Below, in pieces: positions 8,151-24,000 of a DNA stretch of 24,000 bases. Source of the stretch: Candidatus Bathyarchaeota archaeon. Its GTDB lineage: Archaea > Thermoproteota > Bathyarchaeia > TCS64 > B23. Numbering within the stretch: the stretch's first letter is position 1; each line of letters starts with the position of its first letter. The notes beneath the pieces were generated by a model that had not been told where the DNA came from, did no database searches, and was given only the letters and a program-made list of their open reading frames with translations. Where the stretch lies: assembly GCA_029259285.1 (NCBI GenBank), contig JAPDJB010000174.1, forward strand, positions 1 to 24,000, in the 5' to 3' direction. The position numbers and the translations under genes are program-made.

Positions 8151-10145
8151 CTAATACCTAACCCTATATATCAGGACGAAGTGATGCTCCGAGGCGAAGA
8201 CCAGCTCGAAGTGCTCTGGGTCTGCGGTCATCGTCATCAACTTATAGAGGGTTGAATCATAGAACTTCTCCGTATACCTTCTATTGCTGTAGTAGTCCGT
8301 CAGGTTTAGGCCTGCTATCTGAACCATCCAGCTCCACTTCACATTGTCGCCGAAGGGCCACTGCTGCCTAGGATTGTTGGGGTTGAAGGTGGCGAAGACG
8401 AGGATATGCGTCGCCCCATAGCGTCTGAGGATCTCAAGGGATCTCGATTCGTTCAGCATCATTATGAGGGCTATCTGGGCGATCTGACGCTGAATCCTCG
8501 TCGATCCATCTGCGAGGGTTCGCTTACCCGCGACGGTCTCTATCCAGTAGCCGTAGTCCCACCAGGAGACGACTACAGCGTCCTCGGGGAGGTTGTCCCT
8601 CATCCACGTCAGGGCCTGAGGCCAATCCTGTGGGTATTCACCCCCGATCTGGACGGGGACGGCTGAGGAGGCGAAGGTTCCAGGCCTATAGGAGGTGGAG
8701 GCAGCCCTCCAGATTGTGGGCATCGTCGCAATGAGGATGAAGGCTATGAAGAGCATCGAAGCCTCACGGCCTACCCCCATCACCCTCCTCCGCCTTTCCC
8801 TCCCCCAGCCCGCGACCAGCTGGATATGGGGGGTTAGAAGCTCCACCAGGGCATAAGAGGCCATGAGGGCTGCCGGAATGGAGAGGATGAGGGTTAACCT
8901 GATCATGGAGCCGGCGAAGTAGAGGGCTGTGAGATAGAATAGGAGCGCGTAGAGCTTACGCTCATCGAGGCCTCTGAGGGCTACATAGCATCCGAAGACG
9001 GAGAGGGGGAGGATGAAGCCGAAGTCCATGAAGAAGCTGGTCCACACCGCCCTCTTATGCTCAGCCACAGACTCCAATAGAGGGCTTTCAGGCCTCTTAG
9101 AGGGATTTAAGACGCTGAGGAATTTGCCAGTCAGGGGCTTAGCTATCCCCACATATTGGAGTAGGAGGGCGACGCCGAGAGCCGAGATGGCCAGGATCAG
9201 CGCAGGTATGATGAGTCTCCTAAGGGCGATTCGAGGCCTCACGGCCTCATAGACGAGGAGCGTGACCACTAGGAGGAGAACGGTGACATTCTCCACGCTC
9301 AGGAGAAATCTGGGGCCAAGCTTGGGGACGGAGATGGCGAAGAGGTAGCCTATAAACATCGTTAGGCAGTAGGAGGTTAGCACCCGTCGATCATAGTGGC
9401 GGGTGAAGAGGGTTGAGAGGATGAAGAGGGTGAGGAGGCCGGTCATATACTTCGAGGCGCCCCACGAGGCGTAGAGATAGGCGAGGGCTAAGCCGGCTAG
9501 GGATGAGTATAGCAGCCTCCATATCAGAGGTCTCCCCCCATCTATGGAACGGAGGAATAGGAGCGATACGGCTGCCATTCCGAAGATGCCGATGTTCTCG
9601 GTGTCGAAGAAGCCTAGGCTTGTTCGACTGATGAAGGCTGGGCTTATCGCGACGAAGAGGGAGGAGAAGATGCCGGCGGCTCCACCTCCAAGGTCTCTAC
9701 CTAGGAGATAGACGACGAGGCAGGTGACCACGGCCATCAGGATGGGGAAGTGGATGCATACATCTCTAAGGGAGACCTCCACGCCCAACGTCCTGAGGAT
9801 CATGTATAGGGCTGCGGCTGAGAAGGGGAGTCCTGGAAAGGAGCTGTGGGGGATATCCCTCCCCATGGGATACCAGCTGAGGGTGTCATGCCAGCTGAAC
9901 CACGCCGAGAAGCCGTTTTCAACGACGTATTCAGCCACCCTATACTGGAAGAAGGGGTCATAGGCCGTTAGGTAGGCCCCCCACCTCAAGGGTAGCTCCC
10001 TCAGAGCCGCGGCGACGAAGAGGATGAGGATGAGGGATGAGACCTCCACGAGGCTGCGTCTATCAACCTCAAACCTCAGGCTGGCGAGGCTCTGAGGGAG
10101 TGATCCAAGGCGTCCAAGGGCGTCTCTGAGGCCGCTTATAGGCAT
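8151..10145 (-). CDS. aglB: Archaeal oligosaccharyltransferase AglB (STT3 family)
   Basis: Carries the catalytic WWDYGYWIE motif and an N-terminal YDPFFQYR first-loop acidic motif, with many TM segments followed by a soluble C-terminal domain. The ORF track extends to 10676, but that extension is low-complexity S/P/R-rich and antisense to the 10192-11295 gene. I place the start at the in-frame ATG at 10145 (MPISGLRDALG...). Confidence 0.9.
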   Translation of the reverse strand: MPISGLRDALGRLGSLPQSLASLRFEVDRRSLVEVSSLILILFVAAALRELPLRWGAYLTAYDPFFQYRVAEYVVENGFSAWFSWHDTLSWYPMGRDIPHSSFPGLPFSAAALYMILRTLGVEVSLRDVCIHFPILMAVVTCLVVYLLGRDLGGGAAGIFSSLFVAISPAFISRTSLGFFDTENIGIFGMAAVSLLFLRSIDGGRPLIWRLLYSSLAGLALAYLYASWGASKYMTGLLTLFILSTLFTRHYDRRVLTSYCLTMFIGYLFAISVPKLGPRFLLSVENVTVLLLVVTLLVYEAVRPRIALRRLIIPALILAISALGVALLLQYVGIAKPLTGKFLSVLNPSKRPESPLLESVAEHKRAVWTSFFMDFGFILPLSVFGCYVALRGLDERKLYALLFYLTALYFAGSMIRLTLILSIPAALMASYALVELLTPHIQLVAGWGRERRRRVMGVGREASMLFIAFILIATMPTIWRAASTSYRPGTFASSAVPVQIGGEYPQDWPQALTWMRDNLPEDAVVVSWWDYGYWIETVAGKRTLADGSTRIQRQIAQIALIMMLNESRSLEILRRYGATHILVFATFNPNNPRQQWPFGDNVKWSWMVQIAGLNLTDYYSNRRYTEKFYDSTLYKLMTMTADPEHFELVFASEHHFVLIYRVRY

Positions 10146-10191
10146 CCACCCCTGATAACTTTTAGAATAGTGGGGGAGACTCTTATTTAAC

Positions 10192-11295
10192 TTGCCACCT
10201 CTAGGCTTCATCGTAAACCCCATAGCGGGGATGGGAGGGCGAGTCGGTCTAAAGGGGACGGATGGGGAGGACGTTTTAAGGGAGGCTCTGAGGCGTGGGG
10301 CGAAGCCCTGGTCTCCCATTAGGGCACGGGAGTTCCTGCGACATCTAGGTGAGGCCGGCAGGTCTGTTAGATGGCTGACATGGAGCGGTGAGATGGGGGA
10401 GGAGCTTCTCAGCGAGGCTGGATACAGCTTTGAGGTTGTTGGGGAGGCCTCCAAGCCGACGACGGCTGAGGATACGAGGAGGGCTGCGAGGAGGATGGCT
10501 GAGAGGGGTGTAAGCCTCATCGTCTTCGCCGGAGGCGATGGAACCGCCTGCGACATAGTTGAGGCCATAGATATGGAGACCCCAATCCTCGGCATACCGG
10601 CTGGAGTCAAGATGTTCAGCGCCGTCTTCGCCCCAACGCCGAGGGCGGCAGCCCAGCTTCTCATAAAATACCTCAAGGGTGAGGCTCAGATAGTTGAGAG
10701 GGAGGTGATGGACATCGATGAGGATGCCTATAGAGCTGGACGATTGACGGCCACGTTGAAGGGGTATGCCAAAACCCCCTATGCACCACAACTACTCCTA
10801 AGCGGAAAAGAGACTGTGTCAGCCGTCGACGAGGAGTTGATGAAGGAGTCCATAGCCGCAAGGGTCGTGGAGATGATGAGGCCAGGCGTAAACTATATCC
10901 TAGGCCCAGGATCAACGGTGGCCAAGGTGGCCGAGCTCCTAGGGGTGGAGAAAACCCTCCTCGGCATCGACGTCGTCAAGGATGGGAGGCTCATCGTCAG
11001 GGATGCCTCGGAGGAGGATCTACTCAGGGTCGTCGAGGAGGGTGAAACCTGGATAGTTCTCTCCCCCCTGGGAGGCCAAGGCTCGCTGCTTGGGAGGGGG
11101 AATCAGCCGATCAGTCCGAGGGTTTTAAGACGAGTCGGCTTGGATCACATCATAGTCATCGCCACCCCAAATAAGCTGAGGGGCCTCAAAGCCCTAACCA
11201 TAGATACAGGCGACCCCGAGCTGGATGAGGCTCTACGGGGCTATAGGAGGGTGATCACAGGCTACCATGAGGAGAGGGTGATGAGGGTTATATAG
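10192..11295 (+). CDS. ATP-NAD kinase family protein (COG3199-type predicted polyphosphate/ATP NAD kinase)
   Basis: 367-aa ORF with the N-terminus GFIVNPIAGMGGRVGLKGTDG and a GGDGT motif, both typical of this family. The start is a TTG, 46 bp from the divergent aglB start. Confidence 0.8.
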   Translation: MPPLGFIVNPIAGMGGRVGLKGTDGEDVLREALRRGAKPWSPIRAREFLRHLGEAGRSVRWLTWSGEMGEELLSEAGYSFEVVGEASKPTTAEDTRRAARRMAERGVSLIVFAGGDGTACDIVEAIDMETPILGIPAGVKMFSAVFAPTPRAAAQLLIKYLKGEAQIVEREVMDIDEDAYRAGRLTATLKGYAKTPYAPQLLLSGKETVSAVDEELMKESIAARVVEMMRPGVNYILGPGSTVAKVAELLGVEKTLLGIDVVKDGRLIVRDASEEDLLRVVEEGETWIVLSPLGGQGSLLGRGNQPISPRVLRRVGLDHIIVIATPNKLRGLKALTIDTGDPELDEALRGYRRVITGYHEERVMRVI

Positions 11296-12568: not shown

Positions 12569-12895
12569 ATGGGCTTGGAGCTATCAACGGCGGAGACTCT
12601 CCTTGAGGGCCGTCCACTGAGGGCTGCCCTACTAGAGCTTGGAAACGCCGTCATCGCCCTCATCTGGCTTGGAGATGAGCCGAAGCTTGGAACCCTCACC
12701 ATCTCCATGCCTGGAGGCGTCTCCTCCCCCCTCCTGGGCGATAGGGATCGGATGTTGGGGCAGGTCATAGGTGAACGCCTAGCTCATCTCTATGGGAAGA
12801 TGGCCCTAGTCTCGATAAGCCTCCCCCAGGGCCTGGGAGTCTCCGCCGGCAGAGTCCTCATGAAACTGATGGAGGAGCTGGTGAGGGGGCATTGA
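12569..12895 (+). CDS. Small hypothetical protein, first gene of the UbiD/AcnX operon
   Basis: 108-aa ORF whose stop overlaps the UbiD TTG start (12892-12895). I recognise no motif. The antisense 67-aa ORF is S/R/P-rich and less plausible. Confidence 0.55.
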   Translation: MGLELSTAETLLEGRPLRAALLELGNAVIALIWLGDEPKLGTLTISMPGGVSSPLLGDRDRMLGQVIGERLAHLYGKMALVSISLPQGLGVSAGRVLMKLMEELVRGH

Positions 12896-14235
12896 GCGAT
12901 CTACGGGGCTTCCTGAGGGAGCTGGACTCCCAGGGGCTGCTCCTCCACATAGGGGAGATGCTCTCAACAAGATTTGAGATCGCCGCCGTGATGAGGCATC
13001 TAGATGGCAGGCCCCTACTATTCGAGAGGGTTGAGGGCTATAGGCATAGAGTGGCAGCCGGCCTCTGCTCCAGCAGAGACCTCATCCAAAGGGCTTTAGG
13101 CATCGAGGGTGTACAGCTCTATGAGGGACTCCTCCAAGCCGTTAGGAATCCACGGAGATGTGAAGTCGGCGACGGCCCCGTGAAGGAGAGGGTGGTGGAT
13201 AAGCCAAAGCTGAGCCAGCTACCCATCCTCACCCACTTTGAGGGCGACCCAGGCCCCTACATCACATCGGCGGCCCTCTACGCCAAGACGCCTGACGGCG
13301 AGGTTGAGAACGTCTCCATACACCGCCTCCTCGTCCTCGACGACCATAGATTGACGCTTAGAATCGTCCCGAGGCATCTATACAGAATCGTTGAGGCGGC
13401 GAGGGAGAGCGGCGTAGAGAGCATAGATGTCAGCATCTCCACAGGGCTTCACCCAGCCGTTCTCCTAGCGGCTTCGACGCCCGCCCCATACGGAGTCTCG
13501 GAGTTCGATGTGGCCAACGCCCTCCTAGATGGAGGCCTCAAATTGACGGAGTGTGAACACGTCGACGCCCTGGCTCCGGCTGACGCAGAGCTGGTTTTGG
13601 AGGGACATTTGAAGGTGGATGAGACGGCTGTTGAGGGCCCCTTCGTCGATCTGACGGGAACCTACGATGTGGAGCGGAGGCAGCCGATCATCGAGGTTGT
13701 CGGAGCCATGTATAGGGCTGACTACATCTATCAGGCCCTCCTCCCCTCTGGGATGGAGCATCGCCTGTTGATGGGTCTGCCACGGGAGGCTCAGATATGG
13801 GAGTATGTCCGAGGCATCACGCCCCATGTTAGGGGTGTAAACCTCACATCTGGGGGCTGTGGATGGCTCCACTGCATCGTCAGCATCCGGAAGGTTCGGG
13901 AGGGGGATCCGAAGAATGTTTTGATGGCAGTCTTCGCAGCTCATCCAAGCCTTAAGCATGCCGTCGTCGTCGATGAGGACATCGACCCATACAACCTTGA
14001 GGAGGTGGAGTGGGCCATAGCCACAAGGTTCAGAGGGGATGAAGACCTACTGATCATACCTCACGTCAGGGTTTCAAGCCTAGACCCAGCGTCGGATCAG
14101 AGGCTTGAACTCGGCTGTAAGGTGGGCGTCGACGCCACTAGGCCGCTGTCTATGCCTGAGCATCACTTCAAGAGGGCTGAGATACCTGTTTCGGAGCGTG
14201 TTAGACGTCTGTTGGGGAGGCTGGGATGTATCTAA
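12892..14235 (+). CDS. UbiD-family decarboxylase, candidate trans-anhydromevalonate 5-phosphate decarboxylase
   Basis: 447-aa ORF with a UbiD-like N-terminus (DLRGFLRELDSQGLLLHI) and UbiD-typical length. The functional call rests on direct coupling to the AcnX large and small subunits. Confidence 0.85.
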   Translation: MSDLRGFLRELDSQGLLLHIGEMLSTRFEIAAVMRHLDGRPLLFERVEGYRHRVAAGLCSSRDLIQRALGIEGVQLYEGLLQAVRNPRRCEVGDGPVKERVVDKPKLSQLPILTHFEGDPGPYITSAALYAKTPDGEVENVSIHRLLVLDDHRLTLRIVPRHLYRIVEAARESGVESIDVSISTGLHPAVLLAASTPAPYGVSEFDVANALLDGGLKLTECEHVDALAPADAELVLEGHLKVDETAVEGPFVDLTGTYDVERRQPIIEVVGAMYRADYIYQALLPSGMEHRLLMGLPREAQIWEYVRGITPHVRGVNLTSGGCGWLHCIVSIRKVREGDPKNVLMAVFAAHPSLKHAVVVDEDIDPYNLEEVEWAIATRFRGDEDLLIIPHVRVSSLDPASDQRLELGCKVGVDATRPLSMPEHHFKRAEIPVSERVRRLLGRLGCI

Positions 14236-15416
14236 CCCGACTTGAGGAGGAGATGCTGGAGGGAGAGATGGGGGAGGCCGTGGCGAGGGCTATGAGCCTC
14301 CTCGTCGCCCTCGGAGAGGTCTTCGAGGCTGAGAGGCTAATAGAGGTGGAGAGCGCCCACATCTCAGGGGTCTCCTATAAGAACCTCGGTGAAGCTGGAT
14401 TGGAGTATCTGGAGGAGCAGGCTGAGCTGGGGGCCAGTGTGCGTATAAGGGCGACGCTCAACCCTGCTGGAATGGATTTGGAGCGGTGGAGGGAGATGGG
14501 GGTCTCCCCTGAATTCGCTGAGGGTCAGCTTAGGGTGATAGAGGCCTATAGGCGTATGGGTGTTGAGGCCACATGCACCTGCACACCCTATCTCATAGGT
14601 CATAGGCCGAGGGCTGGAAGCCAGATCGCCTGGGCTGAGTCCTCAGCCGTCGCCTATGTCAACTCGGTTCTTGGCGCCAGAACGAATAGGGAGACTGGGC
14701 CTACAGCCCTCGCCTCAGCGATCACGGGTAGGGCGCCGCTACATGGCTATCGATTGGAGGAGAATAGGAGGCCGAGCATCATCGTGGAGGTGAAGACTCC
14801 CCTAAGCTCCAAATTCGATTATGGCGCCCTCGGCTATCTCATCGGAGAGATGGCGGGTCGAAGCGTCCCCTACATCAGGGGTTTGAGGGGCGCCAGCATA
14901 GAGCAGCTTAAGGCCCTCTCCGCGGCCATAGCCACCTCCGGAGGGGTAGCCCTCTACCACATTGAGGGCTTAACCCCCGAGGCTCGGAGGATGTCGCGGC
15001 ACCTCGAAGGCTTGGAGCGTATACCAGTAAAGCCCGACAGCCTAGGGGAGGTAGCTGAACGCTTCCAGGGGGCTGGGGAGGACGCCGTAATCTGCGTCGG
15101 CTGCCCCCACTGCAGCCTCAGAGAGCTGATGGAGGTCGCCCGTCTCCTGGAGCGTCGCAGCGGTGAGAGACTCTGGGCCTTCACCAGTAGAGGCGTCTAC
15201 ATGAAGGCTGAGCGGCTCGGCATCGTCAAGGCCATCGAGGAGGCTGGGGGGAGGGTCTACAGGGATACCTGCATGGTGGTGGCGCCTCTCAGGGAGATGG
15301 GCTGGAGGGAGGTGGCGACGAACAGCTTCAAGGCTGCCCACTACCTCTCCTCCATGGGCCTCACGGTTCAGGTTGCGCCTCTAAGGGAGCTCCTGGGTGG
15401 AGGCCATGAGGATTAG
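14226..15416 (+). CDS. Aconitase X catalytic (large) subunit, DUF521; candidate phosphomevalonate dehydratase large subunit
   Basis: 396-aa ORF with the N-terminus MYLTRLEEEMLEGEMGEAVARAM...ESAHISGVSY and Cys segments CTCTPY and VGCPHCS, as in AcnX. It overlaps the UbiD stop by 10 nt. Confidence 0.85.
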   Translation: MYLTRLEEEMLEGEMGEAVARAMSLLVALGEVFEAERLIEVESAHISGVSYKNLGEAGLEYLEEQAELGASVRIRATLNPAGMDLERWREMGVSPEFAEGQLRVIEAYRRMGVEATCTCTPYLIGHRPRAGSQIAWAESSAVAYVNSVLGARTNRETGPTALASAITGRAPLHGYRLEENRRPSIIVEVKTPLSSKFDYGALGYLIGEMAGRSVPYIRGLRGASIEQLKALSAAIATSGGVALYHIEGLTPEARRMSRHLEGLERIPVKPDSLGEVAERFQGAGEDAVICVGCPHCSLRELMEVARLLERRSGERLWAFTSRGVYMKAERLGIVKAIEEAGGRVYRDTCMVVAPLREMGWREVATNSFKAAHYLSSMGLTVQVAPLRELLGGGHED

Positions 15417-15801
15417 GGGTCGAAGAATAGTCGGCGGATACGCGGAGGGGGAGGCCCTAGTCAGCTCAGCTTCCTTCAGCTTTTATGGAGGTGTAGACCC
15501 AGAGACCGGCATTATAACCGAGCCTGGCCATCCCCTGGAGGGTGAGAGCGTCGCTGGGAGGGTTTTCATCTTCCCCCATGGGAGGGGCAGCACCGTGGGC
15601 TGCTACATAATCTATCGTATGCATCGTCGGGGGACGGCCCCAGCGGCTGTCATAAACCTTGAGACGGAGACGATCATCGCCACGGGATGCGCCATGGCTG
15701 GAATCCCACTTATGGATCGCCTAGAGGAGAATCCGTTGAGGTTGATTAGGAGCGGCGACTACATCGTTGTCAACGCCGATGAGGGATACATCGAGATTTA
15801 G
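15397..15801 (+). CDS. Aconitase X swivel (small) subunit, DUF126; candidate phosphomevalonate dehydratase small subunit
   Basis: 134-aa ORF with GGYAEGEALVS...SFYGGVDPETG...PHGRGSTVG, typical of DUF126. The track start is the GTG at 15397. The ATG at 15406, preceded by GGTGGAGG, is more likely. Confidence 0.85.
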   Translation: MEAMRIRGRRIVGGYAEGEALVSSASFSFYGGVDPETGIITEPGHPLEGESVAGRVFIFPHGRGSTVGCYIIYRMHRRGTAPAAVINLETETIIATGCAMAGIPLMDRLEENPLRLIRSGDYIVVNADEGYIEI

Positions 15802-19335: not shown

Positions 19336-20211
19336 TTAAAGCTGTCGAGTTCTACTCCTCCAGAGGCTTAGCCTCCTCTCAGCCTCTGCTCTATGCTCCC
19401 TTATTATGGTTGGAAGCCTCCTCACCAGCTTGAGATTCTCCTCCACCCTCCCCCTATACAACTCTCCAAGCCTTGGGTGGAGCTCCTCCAGCAGCATGAG
19501 GCATCTCCTACCCCTGGAGACCGCCTCTGGACAGCTTGGGCTGCAGGGGAAGAAGTAGGAGACGAAGTAGGCCATGGCATCCGCCTCAGCCTCCTCCAGC
19601 TGTCTATAGGCCCTCTCCTCAACCTCTAAGCCCATGGATCTCTCCCTGGCGTATCGCTCCACGCAGCATTGAGGGTATCCGAGGAGTCCACCCATCTCCA
19701 CCACCCAATCGGCTTCCAGCTCCTCTGGGTATGCCAGATATATGCCGAGGCCTCTCGGCCTCTTCAGGGCCTCCCTCCTCAGCTTCTCCCTCCTATTCAT
19801 CAGCCTCCTCAGCCTCTTCTCGACGCCTCTCTCCCTGTATAGGTAGAGCTCCCTAACCGTCGGCCTCACCTCGTCTATACGCCATCTGAGGCCTAGGCGC
19901 TCAGCCCATTCTAAATGGGCTTTATACTCCTCCGAGTTCTCAACAACCTCTCTGTAGGCTCTCCGCATGGCCCTCTTCACATCCCCTATGGCGCCTCTAT
20001 CCCCCCTTCTAATCCTAAGGAGGGTTGGATAGACTCTCTCATCGATGATTCTCCCCATCTCCCCTCCACTCGGGAGTTCGGCGGGTATCGTTATCTGGGA
20101 GCAGGGTCTGACGCCGAGGTAGACGAGTAGATAGTCCTCCAGCTTCACGCCAAGCCTCAGCCTGTCATCCCCTAGGAGCTCCTCGATCTCCCCCTCATCT
20201 AACTCCTTCAC
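19336..20211 (-). CDS. Conserved Cys-rich hypothetical protein (possibly DUF483-like; unverified)
   Basis: 291-aa Arg/Glu-rich ORF with clustered cysteines LLGYPQCCVERY and FFPCSPSCPEA. Confidence 0.7.
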   Translation of the reverse strand: MKELDEGEIEELLGDDRLRLGVKLEDYLLVYLGVRPCSQITIPAELPSGGEMGRIIDERVYPTLLRIRRGDRGAIGDVKRAMRRAYREVVENSEEYKAHLEWAERLGLRWRIDEVRPTVRELYLYRERGVEKRLRRLMNRREKLRREALKRPRGLGIYLAYPEELEADWVVEMGGLLGYPQCCVERYARERSMGLEVEERAYRQLEEAEADAMAYFVSYFFPCSPSCPEAVSRGRRCLMLLEELHPRLGELYRGRVEENLKLVRRLPTIIREHRAEAERRLSLWRSRTRQL

Positions 20212-20247: not shown

Positions 20248-20275
20248 GAAAACAAAGGGGGGTTTTTCAGGCCCT
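20248..20275 (-). terminator. T-tract terminator candidate at the end of the membrane operon
   Basis: The minus strand after the stop at 20276 reads AGGGCCTGAAAAACCCCCCTTTGTTTTC. The TTTGTTTT tract lies 20-27 nt past the stop (plus-strand 20249-20256). Confidence 0.4.
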
Positions 20276-20926
20276 TTACATGGGTGCTATCCTTAGGACT
20301 TGGAGGAAGAACTGCGCCCTGCCGGAGAGCATCGCCATCCTGAAGAGGACGGTGTTGCCGAAGTAGGCTCCCAGGCCGATCATGATGATCCAGCGTCCAA
20401 GCCTCGTCGCATAGCCCATTGCACCCCTATGCTCCCATGTCAGGACGAAGTACATGACGGCGCAGATGGTTCCTATGGCTATGTAGATGTAGTTCCACCA
20501 GTCAACCGCCCCAGCGCCGACGGCTGGCGGGGTGATCGTCGAGATCACCTGTTTGGTGATGTTCGGTATGAGGACTCCCCTCATACCCAGGCCGAAGCCG
20601 GCTCCGACTAGGATGGCGATTGGATACCTGCTGAGCCACCTATACCTCGGCGTCAATAGGAAGAACATCATGAAGCCGAGGATGACCGGTATGACATACC
20701 AGACCTTCCCCTGCATTAAAGGCGGCCCCACCATCCTTATCGTCGTCGTAATCGTCGTCGTGATGAGCATGATGGCCAGCATCAATCCGATGTAGGTGTG
20801 CTCAGCGAACCTATAGACCGGATTTTCCTTGTACAGCGGGTAGCTGTAGATCATCAGCATCAGCAGCCATGAGATCCATAGGCCGGCGATTCCAGCTGGA
20901 TCGGTTGGGTAGGGCATCCACCTCAC
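20276..20926 (-). CDS. Polytopic membrane protein (about 6 TM), operon gene 4, unknown function
   Basis: 216-aa ORF with six hydrophobic segments. The track start is a GTG overlapping the upstream stop. The ATG at 20917 (MPYPTDP), preceded by GGAGGTGAGG, is more likely. The C-terminal LGRWIIM...FRMAMLSGRAQFF resembles gene 2. Confidence 0.8.
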   Translation of the reverse strand: MRWMPYPTDPAGIAGLWISWLLMLMIYSYPLYKENPVYRFAEHTYIGLMLAIMLITTTITTTIRMVGPPLMQGKVWYVIPVILGFMMFFLLTPRYRWLSRYPIAILVGAGFGLGMRGVLIPNITKQVISTITPPAVGAGAVDWWNYIYIAIGTICAVMYFVLTWEHRGAMGYATRLGRWIIMIGLGAYFGNTVLFRMAMLSGRAQFFLQVLRIAPM

Positions 20927-21765
20927 CTCCTCTTACCCCTGCTGGCGAAGTAGCCGATGTTCGCCAGCACTACGGCTATGATGACGAGTATGTGGGAGAT
21001 GTTGATGGCTCCCATCCTGATGGTTGCCTCACCAGGCTCTCCGATGAGCTTCTCCAATTCAGCTCCACCCCTGACTCCGACGCTCATGCCGAAGAGGACT
21101 CCGGACTTGTAGAAGGGCATGTAGCTGGAGCCCAGCATCGCGATCCCTATCTCGGCGACTGGAACCCCATAGGGGATGCGCCACTGCCTTATGTAGTAGT
21201 CACAGCAGTCGCCGGTGTCCCCCGAAACGACCAACTTGATGTCCGTAGCCTTGTCGACGTTCTTCATCATCGGAAGCTCGTCCAGCGGTGTGCCATATTT
21301 GTCGGTGGAGAAGATGCTCCTGATAGATGAGCCCAGCTGGGCAACAGACGCCTCCATGTTGGGGTAGTAGCCGAGGTAGACGTAGTCCTCGCCGTATTTC
21401 AGCTTGGCGAAGTCTTCCTTGGCCCTCCTCAGCAGCTCCTCGTAGGTCAAGTCGACGTCGTAGTAGGAGCCCCAAATGATGATCTTGGCGCCCTCCCTGA
21501 TGAAGAGCTTGGCGCAGGAGACGAAAGCCGGCATACATTCGGGCCAAGCGCTGACCCCGAAGGCTATGTTCATCACAACTACGTCTCCAGGCTCCACCAT
21601 CTCCTTTATGCCCTCATAGAGGTCTCTGGTGGATGGGCTGATGCTGATGGGGAACATGATGGGCCTGATGAAGGGTATCATGAGGCCGATGAATAGTATC
21701 CAGTAGAAGACCCTGCGGTCGATCCTAGCCAGCTTCTCCCAGAAGGTGAGCTCCTCCTCACTCAT
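20923..21765 (-). CDS. Bitopic membrane protein (N- and C-terminal TM flanking a ~200-aa soluble domain), operon gene 3, unknown function
   Basis: 280-aa ORF. TM segments are VFYWILFIGLMIPFI near the N-terminus and ISHILVIIAVVLANIGYF near the C-terminus. It has an ATGA start/stop overlap with gene 2. Confidence 0.8.
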   Translation of the reverse strand: MSEEELTFWEKLARIDRRVFYWILFIGLMIPFIRPIMFPISISPSTRDLYEGIKEMVEPGDVVVMNIAFGVSAWPECMPAFVSCAKLFIREGAKIIIWGSYYDVDLTYEELLRRAKEDFAKLKYGEDYVYLGYYPNMEASVAQLGSSIRSIFSTDKYGTPLDELPMMKNVDKATDIKLVVSGDTGDCCDYYIRQWRIPYGVPVAEIGIAMLGSSYMPFYKSGVLFGMSVGVRGGAELEKLIGEPGEATIRMGAINISHILVIIAVVLANIGYFASRGKRR

Positions 21766-22424
21766 TCACCAGCCACCTCCCCATAGAAGCCCCTCTCCCT
21801 GCCCAGCAGCGCCCTGAAGCCGTAGGCGAGCATTCCGAAGGCTGCGACGATTAGGAAGCATCTCATACCAGGCACCTGACCATAGTCGAGGAACCATCGT
21901 CCTATCACCGGTATGCCGCTCCAGATTACTCCCCCTATAGGGGCGTTGGTTAGGATGACGAAGCAGCCTGCGATGAGCAGCAGGGCCGCATCGATGTTCC
22001 TAGCCCTGAAGGCCCTGTAGGCGGCGGAGAAGATGTAGAATCCCGTGATGGCGTATAGGGTTTGACCCAGGCTTGTGTAGGGCCACGTGAAGAGCCAGTT
22101 GTAGAGGGGGTTAGTCATGGCATCCTGCTTTATGACATAGCCAGCGAGGCCGCTGAGGAGTGTGACGAGGAAGATGATCCATAGCCAAATGCTGAAGGGC
22201 CATACCCCAGCCCTCCTCCTCTGGATGTTCTTCGCATGCTCAGACAGCAGCCTTACGGCTCCCAATGCGATGGAGATGTTCGCGATGATGGTGGCCCAGG
22301 TTCGAAGCTCCTCAGCGACATTCCAGGTTCCGATGAAGAAGAACTCTATGAACATCAGTATGGTGATTATGGCGGTTATGAGGTATACAACCTCCCTCCT
22401 CAAAACCTCAGCCATATTCACCAC
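21762..22424 (-). CDS. Polytopic membrane protein (about 6 TM), operon gene 2, unknown function
   Basis: 220-aa ORF with six hydrophobic segments. The track start is the GTG at 22424. The ATG at 22415 sits 2 nt after the gene 1 stop and is preceded by GAGGTGGTGA. Confidence 0.8.
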   Translation of the reverse strand: MVNMAEVLRREVVYLITAIITILMFIEFFFIGTWNVAEELRTWATIIANISIALGAVRLLSEHAKNIQRRRAGVWPFSIWLWIIFLVTLLSGLAGYVIKQDAMTNPLYNWLFTWPYTSLGQTLYAITGFYIFSAAYRAFRARNIDAALLLIAGCFVILTNAPIGGVIWSGIPVIGRWFLDYGQVPGMRCFLIVAAFGMLAYGFRALLGRERGFYGEVAGE

Positions 22425-23227
22425 CTCAAAACGTTTATCAGCGCTGGACTCCTGGCGAAGCCGAGTAGGAAGCCGATGATCATCAAGGCGATCAATATGA
22501 GCTTCATTACGTCCTCACCCCTCAGACAGCCGAGGATGTCTGGATCCTTGCTTATGGAGGCTCCAGCGGCGTATAGCTCCTCGGCCAGCAGGACGTAGTC
22601 GCAGGTGGCGACGAGGAAGGGCATCTGGTGGGTGTTGGCGGTTCCACCGATCTGGAAGGCTCCGATGGTGTTGCCGCCCTCACCCATTACGACGGACTCG
22701 TAGTAGAAGCCTCCTATCAGGAAGTTTGTTGCAGGCCTCTCCCTCTGGAAGTAGCCGAGGACTGCTGTCAGGTATGGTGACTGGCCGGCGATGAAGTGTA
22801 TCATATCGGGGGAGAACTCCTCAGGCTTCCCCTCAGCCATGTAGGCTGTTCGAAGAGTCTCCTCGGTGAGGGGGAGCGCCGTCGGGATGGGCATGAAGAC
22901 GTCGAGCTTCACACCCGTCTTGGCGCACTCCCTCGCAATGTAGCCGAGGATGCTTATAGCTGCCAGAACCTGTGGACCCTGCGTAGGGTCGTTTAGGTCT
23001 CCAGCGATGCCAGGTGTGAACATAACCGGCCTACCCATCTCAGCGGCCCTGCCGATCCCCTCCGGTATGGCGGCCATGGGTGGCAGCGTTCTAACCGGAA
23101 TCTCCCTCCCCTTTCTCCCGAGGTACATGAAGACGTAGAAGAGTATGTAGGAGAGCAGCAGTATTACGAGGGCCATCCCTCTCCCTTCAACGATGATGGC
23201 CATATTCTCTTCCTCCTTTTTCACCAT
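22418..23227 (-). CDS. Bitopic membrane protein (N- and C-terminal TM flanking a soluble domain), operon gene 1, unknown function
   Basis: 269-aa ORF with TM segments ALVILLLSYILFYVFMYL and LILIALMIIGFLLGF. The alternative ATG at 23203 is preceded by GGAGG at about 8 nt. Confidence 0.8.
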   Translation of the reverse strand: MVKKEEENMAIIVEGRGMALVILLLSYILFYVFMYLGRKGREIPVRTLPPMAAIPEGIGRAAEMGRPVMFTPGIAGDLNDPTQGPQVLAAISILGYIARECAKTGVKLDVFMPIPTALPLTEETLRTAYMAEGKPEEFSPDMIHFIAGQSPYLTAVLGYFQRERPATNFLIGGFYYESVVMGEGGNTIGAFQIGGTANTHQMPFLVATCDYVLLAEELYAAGASISKDPDILGCLRGEDVMKLILIALMIIGFLLGFARSPALINVLRW

Positions 23228-23250
23228 CTAGGGGCCTTGAGACCCCTAGA
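23227..23250 (-). other. 8-bp stem-loop overlapping the first base of the operon start codon
   Basis: On the plus strand, tCTAGGGG (23227-23234) pairs with CCCCTAGa (23243-23250) around an 8-nt loop. In the minus-sense RNA the stem ends at the A of the AUG at 23227. Confidence 0.45.
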
Positions 23251-23252
23251 CA

Positions 23253-23290
23253 GCTAATATAGATGAATTTACCATTATATATTTAAGTTT
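23253..23290 (-). promoter_or_regulatory. AT-rich promoter region with TATA-box candidates for the membrane operon
   Basis: The minus strand reads AAACTTAAATATATAATGGTAAATTCATCTATATTAGC, giving two TATA-like elements 25-55 nt upstream of the ATG at 23227. This is the only strongly AT-rich stretch in an otherwise GC-rich window. Confidence 0.5.
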
Positions 23291-23342
23291 TCCAAGGAAC
23301 TTCTTTCACCTATAAAATTAGGTAATGAGAGGGGAGATACAT

Positions 23343-24000
23343 CTACTCCTCGATGATCTCCACATTAGCCCTCGGCACGGTAACTATTCTGCCATCCTCA
23401 AGCTCCACCTCTAGAACCCTCACATAGGATTCCGTCTCCACCTGCTGTAGATCTATTGGCAGGCTGTGCACTCGGCCTATAGCCCCGAAGTAGGGAGCCC
23501 TGATGATGCGCACTGGGGTTCCTGGAACCATGCCCGCGGCCAGTTCGTCTCCACCCTCCTCCTCGTAGAACTCGCTGTGTGGTATGATGACTTCAGGCCT
23601 CATGACGCCAGCCCTAATCTGGGTTGCACCGTTGGCTGCAGCCCTGTAGCCCTCGAAGCTCTTGAAGAGGTTGAAGGCCCTACGGCTCATCCGCAGCTTG
23701 CCGAAGCCCTCGGTGATTATCAGCGTAAGCCCCACCTCCTCGTGTCCCGTGATGGCTACTCCGATCTCCTCGCTCATGAACTCTGTTAGGTCTCTATGCC
23801 TAATGCCCCCAGCGACGATGCAGGAGACTCCGACCTCCACGCCTCTTTTTAAGGCGTCCAGGGTTACTAGGGAGCCTCCTATGAGTATCGCCCCCTCGTC
23901 ATCATCCGATATATGGTCTGCGGTGAGCTCCTCATCTGGTGAGTCGACGGCTATCTTTATGACTCCATGGGTTTCACCTCCTATGCCGAAGATTCCCTGT
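23343..24000 (-). CDS. Hypothetical protein with KOW/SH3-like C-terminal segment, N-terminus beyond window edge
   Basis: The frame stays open upstream of the track GTG at 23840. My own translation reads ...QGIFGIGGETHGVIKIAVDSPDEELTADHISDDDEGAILIGGSLVTLDALKRGVEVGVSCIVAGGIRHRDL.... The C-terminal GTPVRIIRAPYFGAIGRVHSL resembles a KOW motif. I do not recognise the family. Confidence 0.7.
   Translation of the reverse strand, partial: QGIFGIGGETHGVIKIAVDSPDEELTADHISDDDEGAILIGGSLVTLDALKRGVEVGVSCIVAGGIRHRDLTEFMSEEIGVAITGHEEVGLTLIITEGFGKLRMSRRAFNLFKSFEGYRAAANGATQIRAGVMRPEVIIPHSEFYEEEGGDELAAGMVPGTPVRIIRAPYFGAIGRVHSLPIDLQQVETESYVRVLEVELEDGRIVTVPRANVEIIEE

Follow-up and report, generated by a model that had tools for sequence, protein, structure and literature searches.

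Two groups of described membrane systems come closest to the locus analyzed in this study. The binding-protein-dependent importers, i.e., the ATP-binding cassette (ABC) importers of types I and II and the TRAP and TTT transporters, combine an alpha/beta domain outside the membrane and an alpha/beta domain inside with two polytopic subunits. Their outer component is the most variable one, and tandem amplification to two or three copies is usual for uptake systems. The second group comprises the Rnf and Na+-NQR complexes with their paired membrane subunits (RnfA/RnfE, NqrD/NqrE) and a membrane-anchored subunit with its domain outside (RnfG, NqrC). Here, a 24,000-nucleotide stretch from a Bathyarchaeia metagenome-assembled genome (contig JAPDJB010000174.1, positions 1 to 24,000; the window in the following) was analyzed with respect to four consecutive open reading frames (ORFs) on its minus strand, g1 to g4, which appear to encode a membrane complex with a possible role in translocation.

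Like the importers, the cassette encodes an outward-facing alpha/beta domain (g3), two polytopic subunits (g2 and g4) and an inward-facing alpha/beta domain (g1), the outer component is the most variable, and the cassettes are amplified in tandem. Unlike in these systems, no ABC ATPase and no match to BPD_transp, DctQ/DctM, TctA/TctB or a substrate-binding protein was found, and the soluble domains of g1 and g3 are single-lobed with a transmembrane (TM) helix at each end. With Rnf and Na+-NQR, the locus shares a pair of six-TM subunits of about 215 amino acids (aa) in probably opposite orientation, an anchored domain outside, a TM-anchored cytoplasmic Rossmann-like domain (g1) and a linked RnfC_N-like peripheral protein, encoded by the upstream gene g0. 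In contrast to these complexes, flavin, Fe-S and NADH motifs are absent from g1 to g4, and the gene order and the subunit count differ.

The g1 protein matches the Pfam family DUF6754 (PF20539; gathering score 27 bits) over its full length with 239.5 bits (E = 4.3e-71; profile positions 11-248 of 257), and NCBIfam gave a weak match of g1 to GlgA. For g2, g3 and g4 no match was found in Pfam or NCBIfam, and scanning every member of their alignments individually against Pfam revealed no recurrent family (27 members for g2 and g4, E up to 1). ABC_tran was detected in none of the proteins g0 to g5 (Pfam, NCBIfam), no ABC gene is conserved beside the cassette in about 170 loci, and known ABC permease families (BPD_transp_1, ABC2_membrane, FecCD and others) were not found among the 27 g2 and g4 members. 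Likewise, no subunit matched a TRAP or TTT component (DctQ and DctM, TctB and TctA, DctP/TctC) in Pfam or NCBIfam, and Rnf-Nqr, FMN_bind and Fer4 were not detected in g1 to g4. A motor of the MotA/ExbB/TolQ type was rejected, the match of one of 14 g2 members to MotA_ExbB (E = 0.55) being noise; a conserved mid-membrane aspartate was not found in the family alignments of g2, g3 or g4. PADLOC gave no matches for the cassette proteins, PHROGs gave a single match to a TM segment (E = 0.05), and sequence and profile searches against PDB chains yielded nothing significant for g1 to g4, g0, the downstream-encoded g5 or the MutL-like protein encoded upstream in relatives. No papers mentioning DUF6754 or PF20539, and none for PF13941 (the family of the MutL-like protein), were found in the literature search.

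An earlier note on this DNA, made from the sequence without database searches, had recorded no Walker motif, no redox-cofactor motif and no nameable transporter signature in the four proteins and had assigned them to no characterised family. This holds after the searches, which yielded DUF6754 for g1 as the only confident profile match. Since the system can be placed in no described kind and three of its four families lack a database entry, it is rated here as lying outside the known systems; the folds of g2 and g4 may still link it to a known superfamily. DUF6754 has been a family in name only, and its constant partnership with three further families, its topology and its predicted Rossmann-like fold were worked out in this study.

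The longest ORFs on the minus strand extend from 22418 to 23227 (g1, 269 aa), 21762 to 22424 (g2, 220 aa), 20923 to 21765 (g3, 280 aa) and 20276 to 20926 (g4, 216 aa) and overlap by 7, 4 and 4 nucleotides (nt). If the internal ATG codons at 22415 (g2) and 20917 (g4) are used, gaps of 2 nt and 5 nt result, and the two codons are preceded by the Shine-Dalgarno (SD)-like motifs GAGGTGGTGA and GGAGGTGAGG, respectively. The same internal ATGs are chosen by the public gene calls on the identical contig, giving proteins of 217 aa (g2, 21762 to 22415) and 213 aa (g4, 20276 to 20917). Reading of the ORFs and junctions thus reproduced the four genes, overlaps and gaps listed in the earlier note. The extent it gave for g1 needs correction, as translation most likely begins at the second ATG at 23203 (22418 to 23203, 261 aa): a GGAGG (23212 to 23216, minus strand) is located 8 nt upstream of this codon, the homologues start with MAII..., and the first ATG is missing in L005, a 72%-identical relative in which the GGAGG is kept.

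The unit had also been credited with an AT-rich promoter and a T-tract of its own, and both can be read from the sequence. Upstream of g1, an AT-rich region (23274 to 23317, minus strand) contains two TATA-box-like elements, TTTTATA (23311 to 23317) and TTAAATATATAAT (23274 to 23286), which are conserved in the close relatives L002 to L004 and represent a candidate archaeal promoter of g1 to g4. The tract TTTGTTTT (20249 to 20256, minus strand), 20 nt after the g4 stop codon, is a candidate archaeal oligo-T terminator. A scan for sigma-70 promoters and intrinsic terminators gave no sites on the minus strand of the genes, which is uninformative because the host is an archaeon, for which the model is not relevant. 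The stretch from the TATA-like box to the GGAGG, probably the 5' leader of g1, contains an inverted repeat CTAGGGG-N8-CCCCTAG (23228 to 23249, minus strand). It is kept in the closest relatives only and has no Rfam match; no structured RNA was detected by Rfam anywhere in the window.

For the distribution of the cassette, a scan with one genome per species (79 loci; gene order read by tblastn) and a metagenome scan (80 more loci) were evaluated. About 45 loci from Bathyarchaeia and about 35 from bacteria show the order g1-g2-g3-g4, and it is held in 45 of the 46 metagenome loci with all four genes. Bacterial carriers belong to at least 10 phyla, with loci from WOR-3, TA06, Stahlbacteria, Latescibacterota, Poribacteria, Planctomycetales, Cloacimonadota, Edwardsbacteria and Bacillota, so that the unit holds together well outside the genome in which it was first noticed. 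Since all four proteins are conserved in about 170 loci across two domains of life, g1 to g4 are real genes and not chance ORFs. Clustering of all neighbouring ORFs revealed g1 to g4 as the only families common to archaeal and bacterial loci, and the bacterial g2/g3 and g3/g4 junctions also overlap by 4 nt. The homologues were found in soil, groundwater, sediment and digester metagenomes, and no cassette copies were found on plasmids or phages. At 90% identity, DUF6754 falls into at least 7,973 clusters, and at 50% identity the g3 family forms 4,271.

Genomes often contain two to three copies of the cassette. In WOR-3 and TA06 (L046, L048, L058, L070, L072, L074 and L076), two or three complete cassettes follow one another in tandem, the copies being 50-82% identical. 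In the closest relatives of the window, a second divergent cassette (27-38% identical) is located about 7 kilobases (kb) upstream, beyond the equivalent of window position 24000 (L002:119-901, L003:138-3033, L005:767-1549 and L006:266-1838); in L003, the two cassettes flank the pair formed by the MutL-like gene and g0. All four proteins diverge in parallel between the copies of one genome. The degree of conservation follows the order g1 > g4 ~ g2 > g3 in every comparison, which is what a conserved engine combined with a variable receptor would show. Archaeal cassettes of type 1, archaeal cassettes of type 2 and bacterial cassettes are roughly equidistant from one another, and the module has moved between the domains of life as a unit.

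Hydropathy and AlphaFold models revealed that g1 and g3 each have a soluble domain of about 200 aa between an N-terminal and a C-terminal TM helix, and hydropathy gave about six hydrophobic segments each for g2 and g4. The alternation of bitopic and six-TM proteins pointed out in the earlier note is therefore confirmed. The AlphaFold2 (AF2) models, for which the input alignments mixed archaeal and bacterial homologues, reached a pLDDT (predicted local distance difference test) of 87 and a pTM (predicted TM-score) of 0.82 for g1 and of 90 and 0.84 for g3. Both show the same order of elements, namely the TM helix, alpha0, six beta-alpha units and a long C-terminal helix which becomes the second TM segment. 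Judged solely by this order and by the Foldseek neighbours, the soluble domains of g1 and g3 are predicted to be six-stranded and Rossmann-like.

In a Foldseek search against the PDB, neither model obtained a match at E <= 1e-3. The neighbours found were RCK, COMT, SIS, shikimate dehydrogenase and USP for g1 and glutamyl-tRNA reductase, GT-B halves, alcohol dehydrogenase and eIF2B for g3, with TM-scores between 0.2 and 0.4; the top match of g1 was the RCK domain of MthK (E = 0.013, probability 1.0). RCK/KTN, SIS, COMT, shikimate dehydrogenase and the GT-B halves are three-layer alpha/beta/alpha sandwiches as well. In contrast to RCK/KTN and generic Rossmann-like domains, no cofactor motif was found, and the family alignments of g1 and g3 contain neither a GxGxxG-type loop after beta1 nor an acidic residue after beta2.

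The g1 protein is the most conserved subunit, with 39 invariant positions across archaea and bacteria, and g3 is the least conserved one. Invariant residues near the C-terminal ends of strands or the starts of helices are G73, G172/F174/E177, G195/Q201, C209-D210-Y211 and E216-E217 in g1 and G185-D186, A209/S213 and G230/G233/E236/E238 in g3. The C-terminal ends of the strands are the usual ligand site of Rossmann-like domains, and mapping onto the predicted elements suggests that most of the invariant residues cluster at this position. In addition, TM2 of g3 carries the invariant residues H258 and N269.

In the bacterial homologues of g1, TM1 is preceded by a signal peptide and an fn3 domain and followed by ARRGK, and the mean number of lysine and arginine residues (K+R) in 92 g1 sequences is 4.3 just after TM1 vs. 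0.6 before it. For this reason, g1 is placed N-out with the DUF6754 domain in the cytoplasm. In g3, the tails contain 3.3 and 3.2 K+R compared to about 1.3 on the domain side, and in the homologue P0408 (838 aa) an insertion of about 550 aa, made up of CARDB/Ig-like repeats, separates alpha2 from beta3; both features argue for an extracytoplasmic domain. The two proteins thus have opposite membrane orientations, g1 being N-out with its domain inside and g3 N-in with its domain outside. Shorter insertions before the C-terminal TM helix were observed in the g3 homologues P0480, P0482 and P0398. Natural fusions of subunits were not found among 150 diverse g3 representatives, the 838-aa outlier being accounted for by the CARDB insertion.

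For g2, 10.8 K+R inside compared to 3.6 outside point to an N-in/C-in topology, and the motif FYIASAAYRAFRARN is conserved at the cytoplasmic end of TM4. The g4 family is characterised by the motifs LYKENPxYRFAEH and FGNTVxxRxSLLxGRxQF. Some g4 homologues have an extra C-terminal TM helix with K/R behind it, so that the normal C-tail comes to lie outside, and g4 is probably N-out/C-out. No conserved cysteine was found in the family alignments of g2 and g4, and likewise none in that of g3; internal 3+3 repeats were not found in g2 or g4.

Upstream of g1, the window contains the C-terminal 219 codons of g0 (23343 to 24000, minus strand), which encodes a protein of about 385 aa running off the window end; a 165-aa ORF listed at 23343-23840 is the 3' part of g0, its frame being open to the window end. 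A full-length orthologue is located at L003:6726-7883. In relatives, g0 is preceded by a 611-aa gene of the MutL/GlmL family (PF13941), the pair spanning L003:4889-7883. This MutL-like gene, two positions upstream of g1, matches PF13941 with E = 3e-117 and 5e-93, and its product is named 'glutamate mutase L' by NCBI; no glutamate mutase genes were found near it, and no demonstrated activity of the GlmL/MutL family was found in the literature search. The protein is a confident member of this hydantoinase-A-like ASKHA family, paired here with g0 and the cassette. The g0 protein has 78 invariant columns and consists of a barrel-sandwich domain (biotin/lipoyl/RnfC_N-like), an alpha/beta middle part with a weak RraA-like match (E = 0.008) and a KOW-like C-terminus (E = 0.25); Pfam scores are 29.7 bits for Biotin_lipoyl and 24.2 bits for RnfC_N, the latter below the cutoff of 25.6.

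Archaeal and bacterial g0 proteins are 46% identical (E = 3e-117) and the MutL-like proteins 54%, both being clear orthologues across the domains, and g1 to g4 of the same genomes, with 26-39%, are less conserved than both. Of 27 archaeal loci with at least 2.5 kb of upstream DNA, 17 have the MutL-like/g0 pair ahead of the cassette. Among 71 g1-bearing metagenome loci (35 with at least 2.5 kb upstream), g0 is located upstream in 31 and the MutL-like gene in 23. In a separate bacterial clade from soil and groundwater metagenomes, the pair has the same order and orientation as in Bathyarchaeia, and the genes for the MutL-family protein, g0, g1, g2, g3, g4 and a Memo-like protein follow each other on one strand. 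As far as can be judged from sequence, g0 appears to be a linked cytoplasmic partner of the cassette, and with g0 and the MutL-family gene linked in both domains of life, the boundaries drawn in the earlier note were probably too narrow.

The Memo-like gene (PF01875) directly after g4 was observed at L139:6397-7677 and in 23 other metagenome loci of the MutL-like/g0 clade. The lipoyl-like domain of g0 carries a nearly invariant lysine (K109) six residues before a conserved proline, a spacing as for the lipoyl-lysine in E2 lipoyl domains. Because of this residue, a lipoate/biotin-protein-ligase-like gene overlapping the end of g4 at L132:6087-6833 is worth mentioning.

Taken as a whole, the cassette is best explained as an uncharacterised stoichiometric four-subunit complex forming a translocation system of a new type, to which we assign a probability of roughly 40%. 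That g1 to g4 form a real four-subunit complex of the cytoplasmic membrane is very likely, and transport as the job of this complex is a tentative assignment of low confidence, for which the evidence is indirect. A single complex is indicated by the fixed gene order, the junctions of at most 7 nt with SD-like motifs, the parallel divergence and the fact that these four are the only shared genes. The hetero-oligomeric, translationally coupled membrane complex without assigned function that had been proposed from the sequence is supported by the packed junctions, the conserved order and the lack of family matches.

The outward- and inward-facing alpha/beta domains together with two polytopic subunits constitute a transport-like layout. 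The setting of the cassette among genes of sugar and organic-acid catabolism in one large-genome lineage also fits a transporter. A transporter is favoured because of the receptor-like variability of g3 and the engine-like conservation of g1, and further because of the two distinct polytopic subunits, the tandem amplification, the cross-domain transfer and the link to an ATPase-like protein. In such a transporter, g2 and g4 with about 12 TM helices would form the conduit, and the tethered outward domain of g3 would capture the substrate and set the specificity. An invariant pocket atop the g1 sheet would bind a small ligand inside the cell, thereby receiving the substrate or coupling or gating the conduit. 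Probable partners of the complex in this lineage are g0 and the ASKHA ATPase-like protein of the MutL/GlmL family, both of which could supply energy or process the substrate.

Several observations weigh against a translocation system. The searches revealed no known transporter family resembling the proteins in sequence or fold, and the g2 and g4 alignments contain no conserved mid-membrane acidic residue for ion coupling. The single-lobed g3 domain, anchored at both ends, is unlike any known substrate-binding protein, and the topology of g4 is ambiguous from charge counts alone (5.5 vs. 5.1). Neither a MutL-family gene nor g0 was found within 8 kb in the 27 WOR-3-type loci (0/27); the ATPase link is therefore not universal, and it may reflect a metabolic association instead of energising. 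Finally, the fn3 and CARDB decorations and the occasional Wzi, PMT and LytR-CpsA-Psr neighbours fit a role in envelope polymers equally well.

A cell-envelope machine of this kind would build, alter, anchor or export a polymer or glycan of the cell surface; the g1 domain would work on a precursor that is nucleotide-activated or lipid-linked, and the outer g3 domain on the product. It is supported by the extracellular fn3 domains of bacterial g1 proteins, one of which additionally has a GH85_C-like region, its gene preceding that of a PMT_2/TPR glycosyltransferase, and by the CARDB repeats in one g3 homologue. Wzi-family outer-membrane proteins are encoded directly downstream in L083/L084 and L090 and a LytR-CpsA-Psr protein downstream in L112, but such neighbours are not conserved, Wzi occurring in 3 of 44 bacterial loci and in none of the archaea. 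The best Foldseek matches of g3 are GT-B half-domains, to which the weak NCBIfam match of g1 to GlgA can be added; the structural matches are, however, not significant (none at E <= 1e-3; TM-score at most 0.35). A tandem two- to three-fold amplification would also be unusual for envelope assembly machines. This explanation is considered unlikely. A split GT-B glycosyltransferase composed of g1 and g3 was ruled out, because domains on opposite sides of the membrane cannot form the GT-B cleft.

To the earlier note, the four genes looked like a duplicated two-gene module, with g1 and g2 paralogous to g3 and g4. On the topologies obtained here, such copies would now be oppositely oriented and would form a pseudo-symmetric antiparallel assembly. 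For g1 and g3, this view received borderline support as a remote homology. BLASTP was not significant, and neither were hhalign comparisons of shallow profiles (E = 0.015 and 0.077), which the addition of AF2-derived secondary structure did not rescue (E = 0.049). With deep profiles (240 vs. 269 sequences), a score of 36.5 was obtained (E = 3e-4, probability 40%, 91 co-linear columns), and a second deep data set gave E = 0.002 in the same region. These values stand above all controls (reversed, 60 shuffled and all other family pairs), which scored at most about 21 with E >= 0.047. The match spans alpha0-beta1-alpha1-beta2-alpha2, exactly the region of the segments that had been matched by eye. 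Furthermore, g1 and g3 share the architecture, the order of 14 secondary-structure elements and acidic residues conserved where alpha6 begins, after beta6. Rossmann-like beta-alpha-beta patterns are, on the other hand, known for spurious profile matches, and the remote homology of g1 and g3 is regarded as no more than plausible.

If g1 and g3 are paralogues, they have been inserted into the membrane in opposite orientations, which had not been foreseen. Opposite orientation, seen for g1 and g3 and probable for g2 and g4 (weak charge bias), is the pattern of known inverted paralogue pairs such as RnfA/E, NqrD/E and EbrAB. Homology of g2 and g4 found no support in the sequence comparisons. BLASTP gave E = 0.63, and hhalign at three depths gave E = 0.23, 0.15 and 0.079, worse than the control of g2 vs. 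reversed g4 (0.011). The loop-length patterns of g2 and g4 differ, half-by-half cross comparisons yielded nothing, and the 'GRW...FR' resemblance noticed by eye is not conserved within either family. An apparent homology of g2 and g3 (E = 1e-47) was an artefact of two 'g2' sequences that ran past the stop codon into the in-frame g3 and are not real fusions. The duplicated module, supported at best for one of its two pairs, is distinctly unlikely. An antiparallel pseudo-symmetric translocase, in which the remote paralogues g1 and g3 would place homologous domains on opposite faces around a g2/g4 conduit, energised by the ASKHA-fold ATPase via g0 in place of an ABC or P-type ATPase and shared by Bathyarchaeia and many uncultured bacterial phyla owing to cross-domain transfer, is likewise given a slim chance.

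The resemblance to Rnf and Nqr would suit a membrane-bound enzyme that converts energy or works vectorially and that the MutL-like ATPase drives or primes, with g0 as peripheral part, g2 and g4 as antiparallel six-TM pair, g3 tethered outward and g1 anchored on the cytoplasmic side. The barrel-sandwich matches of g0 to RnfC_N and Biotin_lipoyl agree with it, although the former scores below the Pfam cutoff and the WOR-3-type cassettes have no g0 nearby. The layout of g2 (N-in) and g4 (probably N-out), each with about six TM helices and about 215 aa, resembles that of RnfA/RnfE and NqrD/NqrE, and g3, like RnfG and NqrC, is membrane-anchored with its domain outside; the higher conservation of g0 and the MutL-family protein compared to the membrane subunits would fit as well. 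None of the subunits, however, contains an Rnf-Nqr, FMN_bind or Fer4 match or a flavin/NAD motif, and g2, g3 and g4 lack conserved cysteines; such an enzyme is given a small probability. A transmembrane sensor or regulator, in which g3 would sense an external ligand and g1 relay the signal inside, accords with the alpha/beta domains facing both ways, the MthK RCK gating domain as top g1 match and the multiple copies per genome, but is highly improbable given that no kinase, cyclase or DNA-binding output domain lies in or beside the cassette in any lineage, that the TM-score to RCK is just 0.30-0.36 and that twelve extra TM helices in two dedicated subunits would be hard to explain.

The cassette is not a curiosity of one genome, as its large families extend over Bathyarchaeia and many bacterial phyla, often with two or three copies; three of the four families have no database entry, and g1 and g3 have no structural relatives beyond the generic Rossmann-like fold. 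If g1 to g4 indeed form a transporter or translocase, it would represent a new mechanistic class and could explain substrate acquisition in these uncultured lineages. Should g1 and g3 be true paralogues, they would represent a rarity, namely a large soluble domain that changed sides of the membrane once it had been duplicated. Through the linkage of its ASKHA-type ATPase-like member to the cassette, the GlmL/MutL family gains a second context that can be tested. For experimental work, the exact boundaries of the genes, the topologies, the invariant residues and the partner genes offer starting points.

Downstream of the cassette, g5 (19336 to 20211, minus strand) encodes a soluble, cysteine-rich protein of 291 aa with the Pfam domain DUF483 (E = 2e-9). 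Of the 45 archaeal loci, 34 have this gene downstream of the cassette; it is found there in none of the bacterial loci and lies outside the cross-domain core. Its product carries the cysteine motifs CC...C..C; a structural or functional relative was not found, and the literature matches for DUF483 were prefix matches to other DUF numbers only.

The remaining neighbours, too, are specific to lineages; in FCB-type bacteria, they are a MazG-like protein, a secreted protein of 550 aa and Wzi. In 18 of 44 bacterial loci (WOR-3-type, Latescibacterota), g1 is closely preceded by the small gene for a MazG-like NTP pyrophosphohydrolase, for example at L090:7696-8004, where it overlaps g1 by 4 nt, and at L063:7251-7550. 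The 550-aa protein is beta-rich, has no Pfam match and is often encoded further upstream of the MazG-like gene in WOR-3; that it belongs to the same family as the Wzi-family protein was not supported by BLASTP. In one lineage with large genomes, the cassette lies on the same strand among genes of sugar and organic-acid catabolism.

The remaining part of the window contains ordinary archaeal housekeeping genes between 1954 and 11770, none of which is linked to the cassette in other genomes. They include genes for diphthamide synthase, SRP54, deoxyhypusine synthase, a metallophosphoesterase, an HD-domain protein, thymidylate kinase and an aminotransferase. An oligosaccharyltransferase of the STT3/AglB type (841 aa) is encoded at 8151-10676. 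At 12892-15801 on the plus strand, genes for a UbiD-family decarboxylase and aconitase-X (AcnX) and a small overlapping ORF are located side by side, a set which may correspond to the phosphomevalonate dehydratase and anhydromevalonate-phosphate decarboxylase genes of the archaeal modified mevalonate pathway that it resembles.

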